Source: an uncultured Bacilli bacterium
GTDB lineage: Bacteria > Bacillota_I > Bacilli_A > RF39 > UBA660
Length of the DNA stretch: 64,000 bases
Direction of reading: 5' to 3'
NCBI GenBank assembly: GCA_934098745.1
Contig: CAKOPG010000005.1
Coordinates: 4,839 to 68,838, forward strand
Positions 12,556 through 49,520 of the stretch are shown in pieces; position 1 is the first letter of the stretch, and each line of letters starts with the position of its first letter. A program made the translations under genes and the position numbers. The notes under the pieces were generated by a model. That model searched no databases, was not told where the DNA came from, and saw nothing but the letters and a program-made list of their open reading frames with translations.

Positions 12556-12604
12556 TCCAATTAAATAATAAACTATCTTATAAGCCACATTCTGTACCGT
12601 AATT

Positions 12605-12922
12605 GGTGACAAACATTTATCTATGAGTTACCTCATCCATTTTATAGATTCTTATTCTCCTAAAATAGTTCCCCTACCATAATTTGGGTTTCTCACTTGT
12701 GGGGTTTACCGCGTTTCACCCTATACATTTCTATATAGATTCGTCTCTGTGGCACTTTATATCTACCTAGTCATAGATATACTCCTTAGACTATAGTAAA
12801 TGCCGTCAAGTTATTAACTTGCCATCGGTTATTTTTTCCCTTTGCACAAACATTACTATCATCACAGATAGTGTGAGTGTGGACTTTCCTCTAAGTATTT
12901 CTACCCAGCGTTTGTCCAGATA
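12605..12922 (-). ncRNA. rnpB: RNase P RNA, bacterial type B (compact)
   Basis: The minus strand reads ..GAGGAAAGTCCACAC.., ..AAAGTGCCACAGAGACGAATC.., ..GGTGAAACGCGGTAAACCCCACAAGTGAGAAACCCAAATTATGGTAGGGGAAC... A terminal P1 pairing GACAAAC (about 12916-12910) / GTTTGTC (12614-12608) closes the structure. It sits next to gpsB, as in B. subtilis. Ends are accurate to about 5 nt. Confidence 0.85.
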
Positions 12923-12924
12923 AT

Positions 12925-38947: not shown

Positions 38948-40510
38948 TTAAGCAATTGTATATGGATTGCTCCTTGTACCAGTTCCCTCTAATTTAATAT
39001 TTTGTTTAAGATATACTACTGGCTGAACCCCATACACATTATCTACACGATAATCTGCCGGATAATTAGTACCAACACGACCATTGCTACCCACAAAAAA
39101 TACCGTATGTATATAACTTGAAAATGGAGAAATAGTAAATCGTGAGTTAGATGAATTAAATAACCATGAATTACTTGGTTTAGCTCCTTGATCCGTATAA
39201 CAAACATTCATATTATTATAACACGTATCATCAACACCATTTGCAAATGTATAGCTATAATCTGATGGATACATTAATCCGACATATCCATCCCAGTTTA
39301 ACTCTCTATTTGTTGGAACTGTAGTTCCTCTTTCTACAGTATACCAATCACTCGCTCCTTTGGTAGTATTATTCGTTCCTCCCAAATAATATGTTACTTC
39401 ATCTATTTGCGATAATGCCTCATTATTTAATGTCCATGTATTTTTTTTACAACTATATGCTGTTGCCCTAGCTGCAATACTTGCAGGCTTACACCCAATT
39501 TGATACATTATATACCCATTAGCACCTTTTATATAATTTCCATCTAAAGTATATCCCGTTTTTAGCTTATATGTTGTTGGGTTTAACATATACATTAATT
39601 GTGAATCTGTCCAATCATTTGAACCAGAATCACCCGTTGATGAACCAACCGCAAGAGTTTTATAATCAAAATACATACTACCAATAGATGCATCTTTTAT
39701 TATTTTTATTCTTCCATCAAATACTCCAATCATTCGCCATACTTCATTATTATATGTTATATAATTATTAGGCACATTTCCGATATATCTATAATCTGTT
39801 AAAGCCTCTGTTTGCTCTGTTGCTTCATGAGAAAATGTCCACATTTCACCTTTTTCAGTATCCGTTGCTTCAGTATACGTCAACGTACTCGGATTAGCTT
39901 TTTCTATAAGTTTCTGCGCATTTAATAACAACTTATCAGCACAACTTCCATTTAACGATAGACTAAATGTTTGGTTCATTGTCTCACTACTAGTTTCTTT
40001 AGCATCTAACCATATCCATAAATAATACGTATCCACAGTCGTAGATGTATAATCTTTTACATTTAATAAATTTATTTTATCTCCAACTGTTTTGCCCTTA
40101 AAATTACCAGATGAAATAACTCCTAAAGTATTACTAGTACTATTCGTTGTAAAAGCATACATAAAATTATCACTATTAGTTAAACCCGTTCCTATATCTT
40201 TTATATCTAACCATAAATCCAGATAAATAGTTTTACCACTCTTAGTAATTGTTGGGGTAACTTTTACTTCCCTTTTTATATAATTACCAGTTGTACTACT
40301 ACTTACTGTGGTAGGTATTAACGTTACATCATCTGGTGTTATATTACCTCCACCATCAGCCGCACATCTAAAATCACTTGTTACTGTAAATACGACATTA
40401 GTCTTCTCGCTTTCAGATGTTTGCCAAGATAAATAGGCAAAAGTACTACCTACAATTATAAGTATCAATGATAATACCACTAAAATAATAGTCATTCTTT
40501 TACTTTTCAT
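38948..40510 (-). CDS. Secreted/surface protein, paralog C: TasA/CalY-type signal + N-module (type 1) + a different C-terminal head
   Basis: MKSKRMTIILVVLSLILIIVGSTFAYLSW. Residues up to ..LSLNGSCADK are collinear with paralog A. The remainder (..WRMIGVFDG.., ..YGVQPVVYLK..) is unrelated to the A/B head. Start is taken at 40510, since GGAGGAAATT precedes that ATG; the track gives 40522. Confidence 0.75.
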   Translation of the reverse strand: MKSKRMTIILVVLSLILIIVGSTFAYLSWQTSESEKTNVVFTVTSDFRCAADGGGNITPDDVTLIPTTVSSSTTGNYIKREVKVTPTITKSGKTIYLDLWLDIKDIGTGLTNSDNFMYAFTTNSTSNTLGVISSGNFKGKTVGDKINLLNVKDYTSTTVDTYYLWIWLDAKETSSETMNQTFSLSLNGSCADKLLLNAQKLIEKANPSTLTYTEATDTEKGEMWTFSHEATEQTEALTDYRYIGNVPNNYITYNNEVWRMIGVFDGRIKIIKDASIGSMYFDYKTLAVGSSTGDSGSNDWTDSQLMYMLNPTTYKLKTGYTLDGNYIKGANGYIMYQIGCKPASIAARATAYSCKKNTWTLNNEALSQIDEVTYYLGGTNNTTKGASDWYTVERGTTVPTNRELNWDGYVGLMYPSDYSYTFANGVDDTCYNNMNVCYTDQGAKPSNSWLFNSSNSRFTISPFSSYIHTVFFVGSNGRVGTNYPADYRVDNVYGVQPVVYLKQNIKLEGTGTRSNPYTIA

Positions 40511-40526
40511 AATTTCCTCCATTATA

Positions 40527-42942: not shown

Positions 42943-42975
42943 AAAAAAACAAGGTAATCACCAAAATACCCTGTT
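42943..42975 (-). terminator. Terminator after the NUDIX remnant
   Basis: The minus strand reads ACAGGGTA..TACCTTGT (one G-U pair) followed by T7. Confidence 0.6.
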
Positions 42976-43089
42976 CTTATTATCATCTATTTTTTAACTA
43001 AAATACTGTTAATATATTTAAACCCTTTCAAATAATATATTATTCATAACACTGTATATATAATTTGTCATTTTTATCCTAAATATAAA

Positions 43090-43476
43090 TTAAGTAAAAT
43101 CATTTTTATTTACTTTTTTATATATTGGCCTTCCATCTTCAAAAACCAAATAAGTGTTATAAAACTTGTTATAGTATTCTTTAAAAATAAAATAACCCGT
43201 ATCAATTGCTTGCCCATTTGTTATCATTGCTTCGAAAGTAGGAATTGATATCCACTTCACAGCCTGTACTTCATCTTCTTGTAATTTCAATTCATTGCTA
43301 TTAACATTAGATTTCAATAGAAAAACTTCAACAAAATCATTTGTTCTAGCATATGAACCAATAAATTTTAAATCTCTTTTGTCTGCTTTTATTCCTATTT
43401 CTTCCCCTAATTCACGTAAAGCTCCAGAAATTGCATCTTCAAAAGCAATAGCCCCACCTAATGTCGTTCCCCACAT
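43090..43476 (-). pseudogene. NUDIX hydrolase, apparently N-terminally disrupted
   Basis: Nudix box GGAIAFEDAISGALRELGEEIGI. NUDIX-like coding sequence (IINDKGELLIQQRLTTAKKFLN) continues in frame upstream of the first ATG but is closed by stop codons. More N-terminal-like sequence (ELVGIYNDKHEKLNYTKFQIE) lies in another frame. Confidence 0.5.
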
Positions 43477-43661
43477 ATTAAGAAATTTCTTTGCTGTAGT
43501 AAGTCTTTGTTGAATTAATAATTCACCTTTATCATTAATAATTTAAACTCTCTATCTGAAACTTTGTATAATTCAATTTTTCATGTTTATCATTATAAAT
43601 ACCCACTAATTCCACTATATACCTCACATTATTTTGGTCAAATATACACCTTTATAAATTA

Positions 43662-45095
43662 TCAATTTTCTTTTAAAGCCTTTTTTAAATCCATAATTAA
43701 TTTTTTATCAAACTCTTTCTTCTCTTCATCCGTCATTTCGCTCCAATTTTTATTACGATTTTTTGACTCAAAAACTGTTCCTAATGGATAATCAGTACCA
43801 TTGTATTTCTTTTGTAAATTTTGTTTATTCAATGTACCTATATTAACCGATTCAATGTTTTTAACATTACCATCTGGAAAAGCAATTGCAATACTTTGAG
43901 TAAAATGACAATCTAAATTTTTTAGTCCAGCCGTTTTTTTCTGAAGATATAGCCAAAAATCTTCATTCGTCGCATTATCTCCTAATTCTCCTGCCCATCT
44001 TCTCGTAGCAACTCCTGGCTCACCATTTAATTCATGAATATAAAACCCTGTATCATCACCAAGAGTAATTAATCCTGTTAGACTACACCATGTACGTGCT
44101 TTAGCAATAGCATTTTCTCTAGACGATGTTAATCCTTCAGTAATATTAACATCATATGGATAATCTTTAATTGTCTTAATTATAAATTCATCGCCTAAAT
44201 ATAATTTATAATCAGCTATTTTTGCAGAATTTTTACTAGCCAATAATATAGTTTTTTTATCATAATTTGAAACTAATGGTAAAAAACGCTTTTTTATATA
44301 TTCTGTGTATTCATGTAAATTATTATAATAAGGAACCGTTATTAATAACTTTAAATTATAATTAAAATTATCTTTTATTTTATTAATAATTATTCTTTCG
44401 ATATCCAATCTTTTTGATATAGTTATATTTTCTAAATCTTTTGAATCTCTTACAAATAACAACCATGGTTCGATTCTTCTTTCTAAAAATGTCTTAATAC
44501 ATGATTGAATTGTTTTTGTCTTAACATATTCACCATTATATGCTGATTCAGTTAATAAAATAACTTTAGATAGTTTTTCAGCATTTAATCTTTGAATCAT
44601 CGGAGTAAATATAGGATCAACTTCATAATCTGTAATTAACCCTCCTACTTCTATAAAAAGTTTTTGTGGTTTTCCAATATCATTCCACATTTTATGAATA
44701 CGATATTCAACATACAAAGACATATGAGGATTTATTTGTAAATTCTCATTTTCTCCATAATTTTTTATGAAATCACTATATAATTCTCCTCCTAAAAGAT
44801 AATGTTCTCTTCCCCATCTTTTTCCAGTATTAAACGCTTCATATATACCAAAATCATCATGTCCTACTGCCGTATGACGACCATTTTCATTGGTATTTAA
44901 TAAACCATCAAATTTAATTGCATCTGAATTCTCAGTATTAGCTAATAATTGTGCTACCAATGTCCCCTTACCAATATCTGAACGTGGATAACCTAAAATA
45001 AAATAATATTCTGTTTCATTATCCATTGGTTTGTACAAATTTATTAAATTTTGTAATTCTCTTATTGTTTTTCTATTTTCATATACACTACTCAT
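43662..45095 (-). CDS. Fusion protein: CTP-synthase N-terminal (amidoligase) domain homolog without GATase + Ham1/RdgB-type NTP pyrophosphatase domain
   Basis: The N-terminal half matches CTP synthase at three places: ..GYPRSDIGKGTLVAQLL.. (compare SSLGKG), ..IKFDGLLNT.. (compare QKFDPYINVD), ..IEVGGLITDYEVDPIFTPMIQ.. (compare EIGGTVGDIES.PF.EA.RQ). The C-terminal half has ..TILLASKNSAKI.., ..LGDDTGFYIHELNGEPGVATRRWAG.. (compare DDSGL.VDAL.G.PGV.SAR). Confidence 0.65.
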   Translation of the reverse strand: MSSVYENRKTIRELQNLINLYKPMDNETEYYFILGYPRSDIGKGTLVAQLLANTENSDAIKFDGLLNTNENGRHTAVGHDDFGIYEAFNTGKRWGREHYLLGGELYSDFIKNYGENENLQINPHMSLYVEYRIHKMWNDIGKPQKLFIEVGGLITDYEVDPIFTPMIQRLNAEKLSKVILLTESAYNGEYVKTKTIQSCIKTFLERRIEPWLLFVRDSKDLENITISKRLDIERIIINKIKDNFNYNLKLLITVPYYNNLHEYTEYIKKRFLPLVSNYDKKTILLASKNSAKIADYKLYLGDEFIIKTIKDYPYDVNITEGLTSSRENAIAKARTWCSLTGLITLGDDTGFYIHELNGEPGVATRRWAGELGDNATNEDFWLYLQKKTAGLKNLDCHFTQSIAIAFPDGNVKNIESVNIGTLNKQNLQKKYNGTDYPLGTVFESKNRNKNWSEMTDEEKKEFDKKLIMDLKKALKEN

Positions 45096-45096
45096 T

Positions 45097-45639
45097 TTAT
45101 AATCTCCTTATTTTTCTTAAAATTTCTGTCGGTTTATTGTAAGAAGTATTAATTATTTCATTTGCATTTTGTGGAAAATTTATTGAATCTCCAGAAATCA
45201 TACGTTTTTCTACTTCTTCTAAAGAAATTCCCCTAGCAACCAATCGATCATATCTGTCAGTATCATTACAATATAAGTGAACCCACATAACATCTATTTT
45301 TTCTTTTATTTTAGTAGCAATTGTAATTGAAACTGGTGTTGCGCAATAACCATTCATTGCCAAAAAACTTATCCAACTTTTGGGTGTTCCATAATAAACC
45401 CCTAGTTTTTTAAGTAATGCAAAATCTAAACTTTCTTCTAAATAAATACCATTTTTAAAGTTTTCTTCAAACTCTTCATTTGTTAAAAATATAGCATCCC
45501 TATTATTCTCTTCTCCAAGACGTGGTTTTCTAGTCATATGTGTTGGCAGATAAATATATTCTTCATTTACTGCTAAATTAATTAAAGTAGATTTTCCCGA
45601 AGCTGAAGCTCCAGTCACTATAAATGATTTATTTTTCAA
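45097..45639 (-). CDS. Guanylate-kinase-family nucleoside monophosphate kinase (TTG start)
   Basis: P-loop TGASASGKSTL, ..THMTRKPRLGEENNRDAIFLTNEEFE.., ..YGTP... Its stop lies 1 nt from the next gene's start. Confidence 0.65.
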   Translation of the reverse strand: MKNKSFIVTGASASGKSTLINLAVNEEYIYLPTHMTRKPRLGEENNRDAIFLTNEEFEENFKNGIYLEESLDFALLKKLGVYYGTPKSWISFLAMNGYCATPVSITIATKIKEKIDVMWVHLYCNDTDRYDRLVARGISLEEVEKRMISGDSINFPQNANEIINTSYNKPTEILRKIRRL

Positions 45640-45699
45640 TTTACATTTTCCTCCTTTTCTATATCATGGTTACGTTTAATTTTCCATGTAATGTTTATT

Positions 45700-45757
45700 T
45701 TTTAAAAACAAAGAAAAAGAGCTTTTTAGGGGGCATTCATCCCTTAAAAAGCTCTTT
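45700..45757 (-). terminator. Strong terminator after the ABC-F gene
   Basis: Long stem AAAGAGCTTTTTAGGG / CCCTTAAAAAGCTCTTT followed by a T-rich run on the minus strand. Confidence 0.7.
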
Positions 45758-45885
45758 GTAAACAAGTTCTTAATTTAGTACAATTACACGATTTTTTCCT
45801 AATCATATCTATCACCGCTCAAACACGAACATTATCTTAACATTAATTATAATTAATGTCAACAATATTTTTACAAATAATTTCT

Positions 45886-47801: not shown

Positions 47802-49508
47802 TTACGATGGACATGATGCCTGAATATTTTTAATATCATTTTTATAATCATTATTTAATTTATTTAACTTATATTTATATTCTTCACATTTACCTACATA
47901 AACTTCCTTTTGATAATCATACATTCTAGATATTTCACACTTCTCATCTAATTCTTGTAAATCCCCACGTAAGTCCTCTACTTTTTTATAATATTGATTA
48001 AGTTTAGCTTGACTTTTTCCTGAAGTATCCATAGAAAGTCTCCTAATTTGTGACATATAATCAGATATCTGATTATTTATTGAATTTCTTCTACTAGCAC
48101 AAGTTGATTCTGAAATATAACCACCCGAATTATTAACAATTCTATATCTCTCTTCATAATCATATTTAGCACTTGCTATTTCTGGCTCATATTGATTTTT
48201 TAAATCATTATAATCACTACTATACTGTTTTTCTCTATCGGATATTTTTAAAGCACATTCTTTTTTCTTAGCTTCTAATTCTTTATCTTTACTATCATCC
48301 TTGTTATCATTCTTATTATTGTTTTGATTATTATTATTCTGACTATTATCATTATAATCATTATTTATATTTGTATTAGGTATATACTCAGGAATATTTA
48401 TATCAAAATTTTTATTATTATCATTAAATTCATCATTATTATTAATACCTTCATCTTGAATATTTATATTATCTTCTTTATTATCCATCCCTTGAAATAA
48501 AGATAGTTCTTGCTTATTATTATTTTTACTCAAATAGAATAAAGTTAAATATTTCTCTCTATTCTTAGGATTAGCAATATATCCCATCTTACTATTCTTA
48601 TCTATTACTTTATACCAATTATAAGCATTACCTGTTTTAATATCTACAACTTGATATATATCGTTCTCAATTACTTTGCCTATTTTATCTGCTGACGTTT
48701 TTGGTTCTTTCCTTACATTAATAAAATCATTTATTACCTTTACATATAAAATTTTATCTTCTTTAATTTGTGTTATACTAGTTAATCTATCCGCTGGTAT
48801 ATCTCCGATATTTTTTTTATCAGTAAATTTTATCGTAGTAAATATTAATCCCCCTAATACTAAAGCCATTAAAACAAAATATCCAATTATTTCTATTTTA
48901 GAATCTTTTGCTTTACTAAATTCTTCTTCTATTTTTTTATTCTCTTCATTATACTTATCAACTAAAAATTCATCTACATCTATCACTTCTTCTTTTAAAG
49001 AAGAATTAATACGTATAAATATTAAACTAGCCGTAAGTATATACATTAAAGAATAGAGCCAAGTAAGTGCTACTCCCCTAAGAGTTACCTTATAAGAAAT
49101 ATATATAAATATTCCTAAAGCTAACATATATCCAACTTTAGCTATCTTGGCCATTTTTTTTGATATCATTGATAAAATGAATCCTCCAAATATAAAAAGA
49201 CCATAAAAAACAAGTTTCTTTATAATATCACTAACTATATTATTATAATATAATTTCATAATACTATAACTTCCATCATAACTACTACCAAATTTAATGG
49301 AAGATACAAGTAAAATAAATAATATAAAAGATATTATAAATATAATTAAGATATTCCTAACACATAATTTTTCCTTTAATATCTTAACCTCTACTAAATT
49401 ATTATCTTGTATCTCATCTTCTTTATCTATTGGACATCCACAATTAGGACAAGATAAAGCCCTATCACTAATTTCATGACCACATTCAGAGCATTTTATT
49501 AAAGCCAT
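47802..49508 (-). CDS. Zinc-ribbon / multi-TM / SH3b-like / coiled-coil protein
   Basis: N-terminal CSECGHEISDRALSCPNCGC, TM helices, an SH3_3-like segment (..VRKEPKTSADKIGKVIENDIYQVVD..), an N/D-rich linker and a C-terminal coiled coil. Confidence 0.55.
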   Translation of the reverse strand: MALIKCSECGHEISDRALSCPNCGCPIDKEDEIQDNNLVEVKILKEKLCVRNILIIFIISFILFILLVSSIKFGSSYDGSYSIMKLYYNNIVSDIIKKLVFYGLFIFGGFILSMISKKMAKIAKVGYMLALGIFIYISYKVTLRGVALTWLYSLMYILTASLIFIRINSSLKEEVIDVDEFLVDKYNEENKKIEEEFSKAKDSKIEIIGYFVLMALVLGGLIFTTIKFTDKKNIGDIPADRLTSITQIKEDKILYVKVINDFINVRKEPKTSADKIGKVIENDIYQVVDIKTGNAYNWYKVIDKNSKMGYIANPKNREKYLTLFYLSKNNNKQELSLFQGMDNKEDNINIQDEGINNNDEFNDNNKNFDINIPEYIPNTNINNDYNDNSQNNNNQNNNKNDNKDDSKDKELEAKKKECALKISDREKQYSSDYNDLKNQYEPEIASAKYDYEERYRIVNNSGGYISESTCASRRNSINNQISDYMSQIRRLSMDTSGKSQAKLNQYYKKVEDLRGDLQELDEKCEISRMYDYQKEVYVGKCEEYKYKLNKLNNDYKNDIKNIQASCPS

Positions 49509-49520
49509 TACTTCCACTTC

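Follow-up and report, generated by a model that had tools for sequence, protein, structure and literature searches.

The locus lies on the minus strand of a 64,000-nucleotide stretch of DNA from an uncultured Bacilli bacterium, referred to here as the window. Positions 45639-43662 hold a gene for a guanylate-kinase-like nucleoside-monophosphate (NMP) kinase (45097..45639, 180 aa, assigned by Pfam PF00625) and a gene for a 477-aa fusion protein (43662..45095), and the remnant of a NUDIX gene follows next downstream (43090..43632). The kinase gene begins with a TTG codon, with AAGGAGG located 10 nt upstream. A single nucleotide separates its stop codon from the ATG of the fusion gene, an AAGGAG is situated within its 3' end, and the two genes are translationally coupled. 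Two intrinsic-terminator hairpins on the same strand bound the unit. The hairpin at 45715..45757, which carries a U-tract, folds with a dG of -20.3 kcal/mol (z -4.3; none of 200 shuffled sequences folds as well); this hairpin ends the ABC-F gene upstream and sets the 5' limit of the unit. The hairpin at 42944..42978, with a U7 tract, folds with a dG of -12.9 kcal/mol (z -3.2) and marks the 3' boundary before the uvrB leader. Neither hairpin was called by a simple terminator scanner. The initial annotation, which had read here three packed minus-strand genes between two terminators, agrees with the ORF list in the strand and coordinates of all three frames, and with the folding of both hairpins.

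As a description of a three-gene cluster, the same annotation stands for the kinase and the fusion and fails for the third member. Three-frame translations, tblastn and Pfam identify the NUDIX gene as a pseudogene. Its 128-aa ORF (43090-43476, minus strand) matches Pfam NUDIX at 9e-8 over profile positions 31-118 only, and retains an intact Nudix box GX5EX7REUXEEXGU (GGAIAFEDAISGALRELGEEIGI). In-frame homology reaches 25 codons beyond the ATG, a stretch that contains no start codon; further N-terminal codons, about 25 in number, lie in another frame, and the N-terminal strands have been lost by frameshift. A tblastn search with the intact NUDIX protein of locus L017 aligns to 43551-43216. Four independent assemblies share this 128-aa ORF, so the frameshift is no assembly error, and loci L028-L031 are in the same state; the word "remnant" had been well chosen. 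We found no conservation of NUDIX with the kinase-fusion pair across the compared loci, so a conserved NUDIX linkage is not borne out. Since the third gene is degraded in the window and does not accompany the other two in a conserved manner, the functional unit comprises two genes, not three.

The kinase falls within the guanylate kinase family, as originally proposed: it matches Pfam Guanylate_kin PF00625 at 1.5e-8 (35 bits, cut-off 25.2), and guanylate kinases are the only matches in a profile search of the PDB (E about 1e-13). Its score against TIGR03263 is 55.8 bits, below the curated equivalog cut-off of 160.45. Its family comprises 55 tightly clustered proteins (E<=1e-36); ordinary guanylate kinases appear beyond a gap, at 1e-6. 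The predicted enzymes constitute a divergent, private subfamily of guanylate-kinase-like enzymes. In the family alignment the P-loop (G10-K16), R37, R40, R146 and the LID arginines R129, R132 and R136 are invariant, and E68 and the YYG[TS] motif are also conserved. The guanine-binding positions are kept in part: the guanine-binding Tyr of (D/H)Y(Y/F)F is replaced by Ala or is variable, LDxD is replaced by (T/S)-P-V-S inside an invariant C-A-x-P motif (C99-A100-x-P102 at the Tyr and LDxD Asp positions of guanylate kinases), and E68 and the Thr/Ser are retained. In guanylate kinases such as the yeast enzyme, the Glu and Thr/Ser retained here bind guanine N1-H and O6, and the Asp lost here binds the 2-amino group. 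The full guanine-binding set of Gmk (Tyr, Glu, Ser/Thr and the LDxD Asp) is not found in the kinase.

The N-terminal half of the fusion (aa 1-262, 44310..45095, minus strand) consists of a family-specific N-terminal helix (aa 1-27) and a CTP-synthase-type amidoligase domain, assigned by Pfam and Foldseek. Residues 80-261 match Pfam CTP_synth_N PF06418 at 4e-11 (43.2 bits, cut-off 26.1), and the motifs SDIGKGT, IKFDGLLNT and IEVGGLITDYEVDPIF, on which the half had initially been likened to CTP synthase, are all found in the translation. In an AlphaFold2 model of the fusion (pLDDT 88.8, pTM 0.86), this half retrieves the CTP synthases 1vco, 1s1m and 8i9o with Foldseek at E about 1e-13. The Pfam search of the protein gave no match to the GATase domain PF00117, and the C-terminal half is a Ham1 domain; the glutamine amidotransferase half is missing, as had been noted. 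The scores fall below those of CTP synthase equivalogs (30.2 against TIGR00337, cut-off 462.75; 31.5 against NF003792, cut-off 308).

Alignment to E. coli CTP synthase 1S1M pairs the fusion residues K43, K61, D63 and D81 with K18, K40, D42 and D72; E149, G151/G152, D156 and E158 with E140, G142/G143, D147 and E149; and K192/T193/K194, Q197 and R216 with K187/T188/K189, Q192 and R211. Among 64 fusion proteins, these positions show no variation or almost none. The catalytic set K43, K61, D81, E149 and G151 is present in every member and G152 in 63; we take their E. coli counterparts (K18, K40, D72, E140, G142, G143) to be the ATP/Mg and 4-phospho-UTP catalytic residues. Conservation of the UTP/CTP-site set (D156, E158, K192, T193, K194, Q197) ranges from 53/64 (63/64 when K and R are pooled) to 64/64. 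By alignment, the predicted amidoligase half retains every mapped ATP/Mg and UTP-triphosphate residue of the E. coli enzyme. The ammonia-tunnel loop region, which we presume to correspond to E. coli residues about 50-60 including the gate residues H57 and V60, is 12 residues shorter in the fusion: the segment between N46 and D72 comprises 14 residues as against 26 in E. coli. The loop gives way to an N-G-R-H-T motif near the reaction centre; this motif is short and flexible, specific to the family and almost invariant within it. H74, present in 56/64 members, aligns with the tunnel-gate H57 at low confidence, the model pLDDT being low at aa 70-76.

An interdomain linker helix (aa 263-280, 44256..44309, minus strand; aa 260-275 in the model) occupies the linker position of CTP synthase, and homology to yeast CTP synthase extends as far as aa 282, which corresponds to residue 292 in 7rmo_D. 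The remainder, aa 281-477 with the stop codon (43662..44255, minus strand), is an NTP pyrophosphatase domain of Ham1/RdgB fold belonging to a divergent subfamily, as Pfam and PDB matches indicate. Residues 283-463 match Pfam Ham1p_like PF01725 at 6e-23 (82 bits), and matching structures are 4bnq (TM 0.83), 2q16 (TM 0.82) and 6wwd, upholding the earlier assignment. The catalytic residues N289, K292, E320, D347 and D348 are all present in the window's fusion and in 55 of the 64 fusion proteins, and four further members show a conservative D-to-E change. Five divergent members have lost the N/K/E/DD residues yet retain the domain, which cannot be a hydrolase in those proteins. The motifs FGYDP and the C-terminal SHR, which we take to be the base-recognition motifs of RdgB/Ham1, are replaced family-wide, by [YF]-P-[LI]-[GAS]..F442 (Y-P-L-G-T in the window's fusion) and D463-K-K, respectively, and W451 and M454 are nearly invariant. 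The Ham1 half also scores below its equivalogs (86.6 against NF011397, cut-off 234; 55.8 against TIGR00042, cut-off 145.35). The N-terminal half is the more conserved of the two (mean pairwise identity 52% vs 45%) and holds most of the invariant columns.

The fusion family is small. The only database names for its members are "non-canonical purine NTP pyrophosphatase" and "XTP/dITP diphosphohydrolase", and full-text literature searches found no description of the fusion as an enzyme, in keeping with the initial failure to recognise it as a described one. The hosts are Saccharibacteria, other Patescibacteria, a DPANN archaeon with a split form, and low-GC gut Bacillota. In 58 of 71 loci, which span several phyla, the kinase gene is the immediate same-strand neighbour of the fusion gene, the two being usually <30 nt apart, so the check for conserved kinase linkage that had been suggested is positive. 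The oral Nanosynbacter clade has an intact fusion beside a kinase pseudogene, indicating that the fusion works without the kinase. At the DPANN locus (L018), the partner of the split amidoligase is again a Ham1 protein, and a canonical PyrG lies 2.4 kb away; this PyrG apart, no GATase-bearing gene was noted at any locus, and no glutamine amidotransferase lies beside the fusion in the loci whose called genes were read. The fusion is broadly retained in the tiny genomes of Saccharibacteria. A 2026 preprint (10.64898/2026.06.21.733656) describes most Patescibacteria as living on host RNA without making nucleotides de novo, and in a cultured Saccharibacterium the CTP synthase is canonical and non-essential (PMC10633639 supplement).

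Genes flanking the pair are usually housekeeping or DNA-repair genes (ruvA/ruvB, recA, radA, clpP, uvrB). A sister species whose UvrB is 92% identical lacks the pair at the syntenic site; in the window's lineage the pair occupies a variable chromosomal segment. This absence, the PyrG of the DPANN locus and the non-essential CTP synthase of the Saccharibacterium were the points counted for an accessory status of the pair.

Stand-alone amidoligase domains, 40-45% identical to that of the window, are found in loci L017 and L021. They belong to a conserved block together with a PLP-dependent decarboxylase, an NDK-like gene and a Pol-beta-like nucleotidyltransferase, and lie next to YjjX-type NTPase and NUDIX genes, YjjX being the NTP pyrophosphatase partner in L017. 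A kinase, an amidoligase and an NTP pyrophosphatase are thus combined again in these cassettes, from components that are not orthologous, and the cassettes would plausibly consume CTP. The closest solved relatives of the decarboxylase are serine decarboxylases, histidine decarboxylases and MfnA. Ham1 domains of the same subfamily also occur fused to such a decarboxylase (P0110) and to a P-loop kinase (P0116).

Our preferred reading, tentative and to our mind with somewhat less than an even chance of being correct, is that the pair is an ammonia-dependent module for U-to-C nucleotide conversion and sanitation used in salvage. The unit would be a two-gene operon encoding a dedicated P-loop nucleoside-monophosphate kinase and a bifunctional enzyme. 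The conserved residues suggest CTP-synthase chemistry as the most likely activity of the amidoligase half; on its presumed substrate, a UTP-like ribonucleoside triphosphate, it would phosphorylate O4 with ATP as donor, and free ammonia would then displace the O4 phosphate. Free ammonia is the probable nitrogen donor because no glutaminase domain or gene accompanies the amidoligase. CTP synthase is able to accept exogenous NH3 and, less well, NH2OH, with access limited by the tunnel gate (PMC9138612). The intact catalytic constellation of the Ham1 half suggests that it converts some nucleoside triphosphate to the monophosphate and pyrophosphate, and its predicted specificity is clearly not that of the standard ITP/XTP pocket. 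We favor a role in removing wrong products or contaminating non-canonical NTPs. Possible targets are N4-hydroxy- or N4-alkyl-CTP, which the tunnel-less amidoligase might form with hydroxylamine or amines as donors; alternatively, CTP might be passed on to CMP in a sequential step. The kinase would raise the phosphorylation of a monophosphate feeding the pathway (e.g. UMP or CMP) or leaving it. As a whole, the pair would act as an accessory module of U-to-C interconversion and pool hygiene in organisms living on salvaged nucleotides, and is not a replacement for the housekeeping PyrG. The host taxa, comprising host-dependent Patescibacteria and DPANN as well as gut Bacillota, point to salvage and pool hygiene over nucleotide depletion. 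The succession proposed in the initial annotation, in which phosphorylation is followed by amination and then by removal of pyrophosphate, may also hold.

Certain observations run counter to U-to-C conversion. Sequence cannot separate UTP from other oxo-nucleotide triphosphates as the likely substrate; joining a pyrophosphatase to a CTP-producing domain would seem futile were the pyrophosphatase to act on CTP; and the retained Glu and Thr/Ser of the kinase would fit a 6-oxopurine at least as well as a pyrimidine. Also counted against it were the kinase pseudogene of Nanosynbacter and the five members with a dead Ham1 domain. A broader reading, which is conceivable although we lean against it, regards the pair as a hitherto unrecognised nucleotide-recycling route of host-dependent microbes: the tunnel-less amidoligase would aminate an oxo-nucleoside triphosphate unusable by ordinary metabolism, its product would be proofread or processed by a co-evolved Ham1 domain whose base pocket is new, and the private kinase would feed the cycle. 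Substrates may include ITP, XTP, a modified uridine triphosphate derived from host RNA (e.g. 4-thio-UTP), or UTP with a biogenic amine to yield an N4-substituted cytidine nucleotide, and the links by fusion and neighbourhood to the PLP decarboxylase, NDK-like kinase and nucleotidyltransferase may mark a larger undescribed pathway of nucleotide derivatives.

We consider it doubtful that an amine other than ammonia is the substrate. The amidoligase would in that case join an amine, e.g. a decarboxylated amino acid, to C4 of a pyrimidine triphosphate, the Ham1 half would convert the resulting N4-substituted cytidine nucleotide to the monophosphate, and the kinase would act in the same specialised pathway, the end product being a modified nucleotide, cofactor or natural product. 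Such a route is suggested by the decarboxylase blocks of the stand-alone amidoligases, the kinship of their decarboxylases, the two Ham1 fusions P0110 and P0116, and the N-G-R-H-T motif near the reaction centre. However, neither the window nor any of the 58 kinase-linked loci has a decarboxylase or other amine-forming gene accompanying the pair, the decarboxylase cassette is equally readable as a CTP-consuming activation pathway in need of CTP supply, and we know of no such N4-substituted cytidine nucleotide.

The GATase domain of CTP synthase carries a GTP allosteric site, and the Ham1 half might be mainly a nucleotide-binding regulatory or scaffolding domain in its place, making the protein a purine-sensing, ammonia-dependent CTP synthase. 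The start of the domain exactly after the CTP-synthase linker, the better conservation of the N-terminal half, and the persistence of the domain in the five members without catalytic residues are consistent with this. It is nonetheless unlikely: the 55 complete and four near-intact catalytic sets among 64 proteins argue for hydrolysis in most lineages, the window's included, and the split and replaced forms again pair the amidoligase with an NTP pyrophosphatase, Ham1 in L018 and YjjX in L017.

Purine re-amination appears quite improbable. In this scheme the substrate of the kinase would be IMP or XMP, the amidoligase would make ATP from ITP, or GTP from XTP, by O-phosphorylation and ammonia, and the Ham1 half would return unconverted ITP/XTP to the monophosphate. 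Purine auxotrophs would thereby bypass adenylosuccinate synthetase/lyase and GMP synthase. In its favor, the kinase retains the Glu and Ser/Thr of guanylate kinases without the 2-amino-binding Asp, Ham1 enzymes are classically specific for ITP/XTP, the shortened loop over the acceptor site could fit a larger base, and the hosts, like most Patescibacteria, lack de novo nucleotide synthesis. By contrast, the pyrimidine-site residues D156 and E158 and the KTKxxQ motif are unchanged, the Ham1 half lacks exactly SHR and FGYDP, the motifs associated with 6-oxopurine recognition, and we know of no precedent for the route. An anti-phage or conflict system depleting or corrupting nucleotide pools upon infection, for which the variable segment, an 82%-identical relative adjoining a Fic-domain gene in a different context, and one stand-alone relative near a pPIWI-associated nuclease domain and an HTH/M78 pair might speak, is very improbable, since PADLOC matches neither kinase nor fusion, a search of IMG/VR gave no relatives, no sensor, toxin or regulator partner is present, the flanks are usually housekeeping or DNA-repair genes, and tiny Saccharibacteria genomes broadly retain the fusion; the defence or prophage setting raised in the initial annotation finds no support.

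To our knowledge, CTP synthase is treated as universally two-domain and glutamine-dependent, and Ham1/RdgB is regarded as a sanitiser of purine NTPs. In the fusion, the amidoligase half has lost the glutaminase and gained a Ham1 domain with a rebuilt base pocket, and the pairing with the kinase is kept in Patescibacteria, DPANN archaea and gut Bacillota, lineages with the least-understood nucleotide economy. Should the amidoligase prove to be a CTP synthase that works autonomously on ammonia, it would show how these lineages rebalance pyrimidines from scavenged RNA, and studies of the ammonia-tunnel mechanism would gain a minimal CTP synthase; with other substrates, it would represent new nucleotide chemistry. 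Either way, dozens of database entries for "non-canonical purine NTP pyrophosphatase" are mis-described.

Each part of the pair has a well-known counterpart. With PyrG (E. coli 1S1M; PF06418 and PF00117; TIGR00337) the fusion shares the amidoligase fold, the mapped active-site residues and the position of the interdomain linker, and the same ATP-dependent O-phosphorylation/amination chemistry is expected; it differs in the absence of the C-terminal class I glutamine amidotransferase domain with its Cys-His-Glu triad, in the tunnel/gate loop 12 residues shorter and bearing NGRHT, in the additional 27-aa N-terminal helix, and in the coexistence of the amidoligase with a canonical PyrG in at least one genome. 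The C-terminal half agrees with RdgB/Ham1/ITPA (4BNQ, 2Q16, 1K7K) in fold (TM up to 0.83), in the catalytic N-x-x-K, Glu, Lys and DD[ST]G, and in the (E/K)PG..(S/T)(A/R)R phosphate loop, whereas the fusion carries [YF]P[LI]G, W451, M454 and D463 in place of FGYDP and SHR, is joined to an amidoligase and is catalytically dead in one clade. Gmk (2AN9, 1EX7, 1LVG) and the kinase have in common the P-loop NMP-kinase fold, the phosphate-binding Arg pair in T-R-x-P-R, the LID arginines, the YYG[TS] motif and the Glu after the NMP-binding helix; the kinase is set apart by replacement of the (D/H)Y(Y/F)F Tyr and LDxD aspartates, its own C-A-x-P motif, a 6-residue insertion before YYG, and a place beside the fusion (58/71 fusion loci) rather than in the housekeeping gmk context. 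The bifunctional dCTP deaminase-dUTPase DCD-DUT of Methanocaldococcus and Mycobacterium combines base interconversion at C4 of a pyrimidine triphosphate and pyrophosphate removal in one polypeptide. Unlike the fusion, it has an unrelated dUTPase-like trimer fold with a single active site and works on deoxynucleotides in the C to U direction; by analogy, it may serve as a functional precedent for coupling base interconversion with pyrophosphate removal.

The guanylate-kinase-like kinase gene (45097-45639, minus strand; 180 aa), the fusion gene (43662-45095, minus strand; 477 aa) and a NUDIX reading frame (43090-43476, minus strand; 128 aa) are consecutive, and a single base separates the kinase stop codon from the fusion start codon. 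Pfam identifies Guanylate_kin in the kinase, CTP_synth_N (residues 80-261) and Ham1p_like (residues 283-463) in the fusion, where no glutamine amidotransferase (GATase) half is found, and a partial NUDIX match in the third frame; the NCBIfam scores of all three lie far below every equivalog cut-off. The two flanking hairpins, each with a U-tract, are far more stable than shuffled sequence. The initial annotation, which described three packed minus-strand genes between terminators, a guanylate-kinase-family kinase and an amidoligase::Ham1 protein lacking the GATase half, is borne out in these particulars, with both halves of the fusion matched by Pfam and Foldseek. Its reading of the NUDIX gene as a remnant also stands: the reading frame is broken near the 5' end, the initial ~25 codons lying in a different frame, and the identical disruption is present in four independent assemblies. 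The region ahead of the kinase gene (45640-45862, minus strand) combines a promoter-like site with a strong hairpin in a layout resembling an attenuator or riboswitch leader: the hairpin at 45757-45715 is preceded by a good sigma-70-like site (45862-45834, minus strand; TTGACA, 17 nt, TG-n-TAAGAT), and an ATG-TAA start-stop pair lies between the kinase ribosome-binding site and its TTG start. A permissive Rfam search of this leader RNA returned chance-level matches only and promoter-like sites show no enrichment over shuffles; the hairpin is taken as the ABC-F terminator.

A word-indexed search found 69 relatives of the fusion, nearly all two-domain proteins of 475-500 aa, with identity down to 32%. 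Their database names are solely 'non-canonical purine NTP pyrophosphatase' or 'XTP/dITP diphosphohydrolase', and the named relatives come from Saccharimonadales, Nomurabacteria and Patescibacteria MAGs. An exhaustive search of 1.84 billion representatives returned only 23 clusters at E<=1e-30; full-length fusions make up ~7 of these, and in the remainder either the amidoligase domain (~275-316 aa) or a Ham1 protein of the same subfamily stands alone. Among species representatives, the family is present in Nanosynbacter strains, other Saccharibacteria, Nomurabacteria, Paceibacterota and one Nanoarchaeia (DPANN) genome. In the last of these (locus L018, 5980-12323) the family is split into an amidoligase gene (284 aa) and a Ham1-like gene (197 aa) with a 301-aa ORF without Pfam match between them, and a canonical full-length CTP synthase (PyrG) lies 2.4 kb downstream. 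Tn-seq tables of Southlakia epibionticum include a canonical CTP synthase, which is non-essential, and do not list the fusion; three stand-alone Ham1 paralogues of this species adjoin NUDIX, NDK-like and small ATPase genes (PMC10633639 supplement). The canonical enzymes in both genomes weaken the possibility that the fusion serves its hosts as their only CTP synthase. With tblastn, no canonical PyrG is detected in the 64 kb window. No description of the fusion emerged from a full-text literature search on this protein or on CTP synthesis in these lineages, in agreement with the initial view that it is not a recognised enzyme.

The 'Ham1-only' protein P0066 (L022/L023, 7740-8792) derives from the end of a fusion gene that has been disrupted: in tblastn, residues 136-476 of the window protein align across the called gene and its upstream sequence. 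Two Patescibacteria contigs (L020, 6538-10526; L072, 7001-13740) carry the fusion amid recombination genes, in one between ruvA and ruvB with recA and recX near, in the other adjoining radA, ruvC and ruvB; the kinase position in L020 is taken by a gene with weak similarity to nucleoside 2-deoxyribosyltransferase.

An AlphaFold2 model of the 477-aa protein (29 homologues; pLDDT 88.8, pTM 0.86) resembles CTP synthases in its N-terminal half (Foldseek, E about 1e-13). The catalytic set of this half is intact: phmmer, with E. coli CTP synthase (1S1M) as the reference, pairs K43, K61, D63, D81, E149, G151, G152, D156, E158, K192-T193-K194, Q197 and R216 of the fusion with K18, K40, D42, D72, E140, G142, G143, D147, E149, K187-T188-K189, Q192 and R211, respectively, and these positions are invariant or nearly so among 64 full-length family members. 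We take them to form the ATP/Mg site, the 4-phospho-UTP oxyanion hole and the UTP/CTP triphosphate and ribose site; their conservation makes it very probable that the N-terminal half is active as an ATP-dependent amidoligase, with a UTP-like ribonucleoside triphosphate as substrate. Compared with CTP synthase, the fusion lacks the glutaminase domain, has an ammonia tunnel/gate segment shorter by 12 residues and carries an additional N-terminal helix. The shortened segment contains a family-specific, near-invariant N-G-R-H-T motif, in a loop that is of low confidence (flexible) in the model. CTP synthase accepts NH3 supplied from outside, NH2OH being a less efficient donor, with access restricted by its tunnel gate (PMC9138612). 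Because the tunnel is absent, free ammonia would be the simplest nitrogen donor, and the N-terminal half would convert UTP and ammonia to CTP. That another amine serves as the donor seems unlikely.

The C-terminal half of the model resembles Ham1/RdgB structures (TM 0.82-0.83), and the RdgB/Ham1 motifs find their catalytic counterparts in N289, K292, E320, D347 and D348. The complete five are kept in 55 of the 64 family members, four show a conservative D-to-E substitution and five (P0060-P0064) have lost these residues. A regulatory Ham1 domain is a doubtful reading, slightly weaker than that of another amine donor. The base-recognition elements are altered family-wide: FGYDP and SHR, motifs that presumably shape the 6-oxopurine pocket, are replaced by [YF]-P-[LI]-[GAS], W451, M454 and D463. 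Retention of the catalytic set with replacement of these motifs suggests that in most lineages, including that of the window, this half is probably a working NTP pyrophosphatase whose base specificity differs; it would hydrolyse an NTP with non-standard preference. A role of the pair (kinase and fusion) in purine re-amination appears improbable.

A search with the window kinase recovers 55 closely grouped proteins (E<=1e-36) and then, after a gap, ordinary guanylate kinases at 1e-6. The family conserves an intact catalytic set (P-loop, TRxPR arginines, YYG[TS], E68 and LID arginines), while the base-recognition elements of guanylate kinase, the Tyr of (D/H)Y(Y/F)F and the LDxD aspartates, give way to an invariant C-A-x-P motif; the substrate would be a nucleoside monophosphate. 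The initially proposed cluster of three genes holds in part. Kinase and fusion do co-occur elsewhere, as immediate neighbours with a shared orientation in 58 of 71 loci, and linkage of the NUDIX gene is not supported, tblastn finding no orthologue adjoining the fusion in most loci; NUDIX is thus rejected as a third component. Unrelated NUDIX genes near the fusion or its relatives in L001, L002, L034, L017, L019, L021, L024 and L072 were not counted as linkage. The kinase lies upstream of the fusion in the window and Saccharibacteria, and downstream in some gut MAGs and one Paceibacterota genome; the surroundings of the most divergent fusion proteins lack it. Members of the oral Nanosynbacter clade carry it as a pseudogene beside an intact fusion ORF: the decaying kinase lies ~350-430 nt upstream in L006-L012, L045, L056, L065 and L066, with a shared early stop at ~codon 140 and independent frameshifts that differ in several loci. 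The decay was read frame by frame in L007, L008, L009, L011 and L012 only, and is based on truncated or split tblastn matches in the other Nanosynbacter-type loci.

The window has a G+C content of ~27%, and its sole Rfam match at gathering threshold across 64 kb is a full-length class B bacterial RNase P RNA (12576-12923, minus strand; 267.6 bits), which places the host among low-GC Bacillota. Its UvrB has >100 relatives at 89-92% identity, of which just one bears a name, a Bacilli MAG. Among species representatives, the nearest carriers of the fusion are MAGs from the human gut with the label Clostridia. These features identify the host as a common low-GC gut bacterium of the Bacillota and not as a candidate-phyla bacterium. 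In a sister species (UvrB 92% identical) the FTHFS-uvrB interval holds nadE and nadD only, with kinase, fusion and NUDIX absent, and an 82%-identical relative of the fusion lies with its kinase in a capsule locus that has no NUDIX gene. Kinase and fusion thus form an accessory pair that is mobile as a two-gene unit. A yeast guanylate-kinase query gave no tblastn match in the window and missed the window's own kinase too, and is uninformative on guanylate kinase (Gmk). Two large uncharacterised genes flank the region. One (38948-40522, minus strand) encodes a 524-aa protein with an N-terminal membrane/pilin-like segment and no Pfam match, and the sister species (L075-L077) lacks it at the syntenic site; the product of the other (47802-49517, minus strand; 571 aa) combines a zinc ribbon and an SH3 domain with membrane segments and a low-complexity stretch rich in Asn. 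The genes around the pair are housekeeping genes (MraY, FtsW, UvrB, ABC-F, an amino-acid ABC transporter and FTHFS), an IMG/VR scan found no relatives, PHROGs gave generic matches only and PADLOC was negative for both kinase and fusion; the phage-related or defence link raised initially is therefore abandoned, and a defence role is highly improbable.

The two domain subfamilies also occur in other contexts. A Saccharibacteria locus (L017, 2782-8400) encodes, in order, a PLP-dependent decarboxylase, an NDK-like gene, a Pol-beta-like nucleotidyltransferase and a stand-alone amidoligase domain that shares 44.5% identity with the N-terminal half of the window fusion, then a YjjX-type NTPase and NUDIX. 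L021 (5322-11782) repeats the decarboxylase-NDK-transferase-amidoligase block, with Ldh_2, a PEP-mutase-family gene and two NUDIX genes. The nucleotidyltransferase (310 aa) matches nothing in PDB or Pfam, and among solved structures the decarboxylase is closest to serine and histidine decarboxylases and MfnA; the cassette would seem to encode an undescribed route to a nucleotide-activated amine or phosphonate. The same Ham1 subfamily is joined to a PLP decarboxylase in P0110 (529 aa) and to a P-loop kinase in P0116 (389 aa), whereas P0125 (612 aa) places an uncharacterised 330-aa N-terminal region before an amidoligase-like domain.

Since the trio of kinase, amidoligase and ITPase-fold pyrophosphatase recurs with non-orthologous parts (a GK-like or NDK-like kinase, a Ham1 or YjjX pyrophosphatase), these data argue that the three activities belong together. 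In a 2026 preprint, Patescibacteria are argued to live on host RNA, mostly without de novo nucleotide synthesis (10.64898/2026.06.21.733656). We tentatively favor a role of the pair in salvage-type conversion of U to C with built-in pool hygiene: a tunnel-less amidoligase could aminate using the wrong nucleophile, and the fused house-cleaning domain would clear the wrongly aminated products. On present evidence the fusion is not a new category of system, and would be of interest to specialists who study nucleotide metabolism or symbionts with reduced genomes. It would work in the manner of the PyrG synthetase half and of an RdgB-type pyrophosphatase, but differs from PyrG in lacking the GATase domain and from RdgB in lacking the base-recognition motifs, scoring far below the equivalog cut-off of each, while the window kinase differs from Gmk in failing both the guanine-pocket and the score tests.
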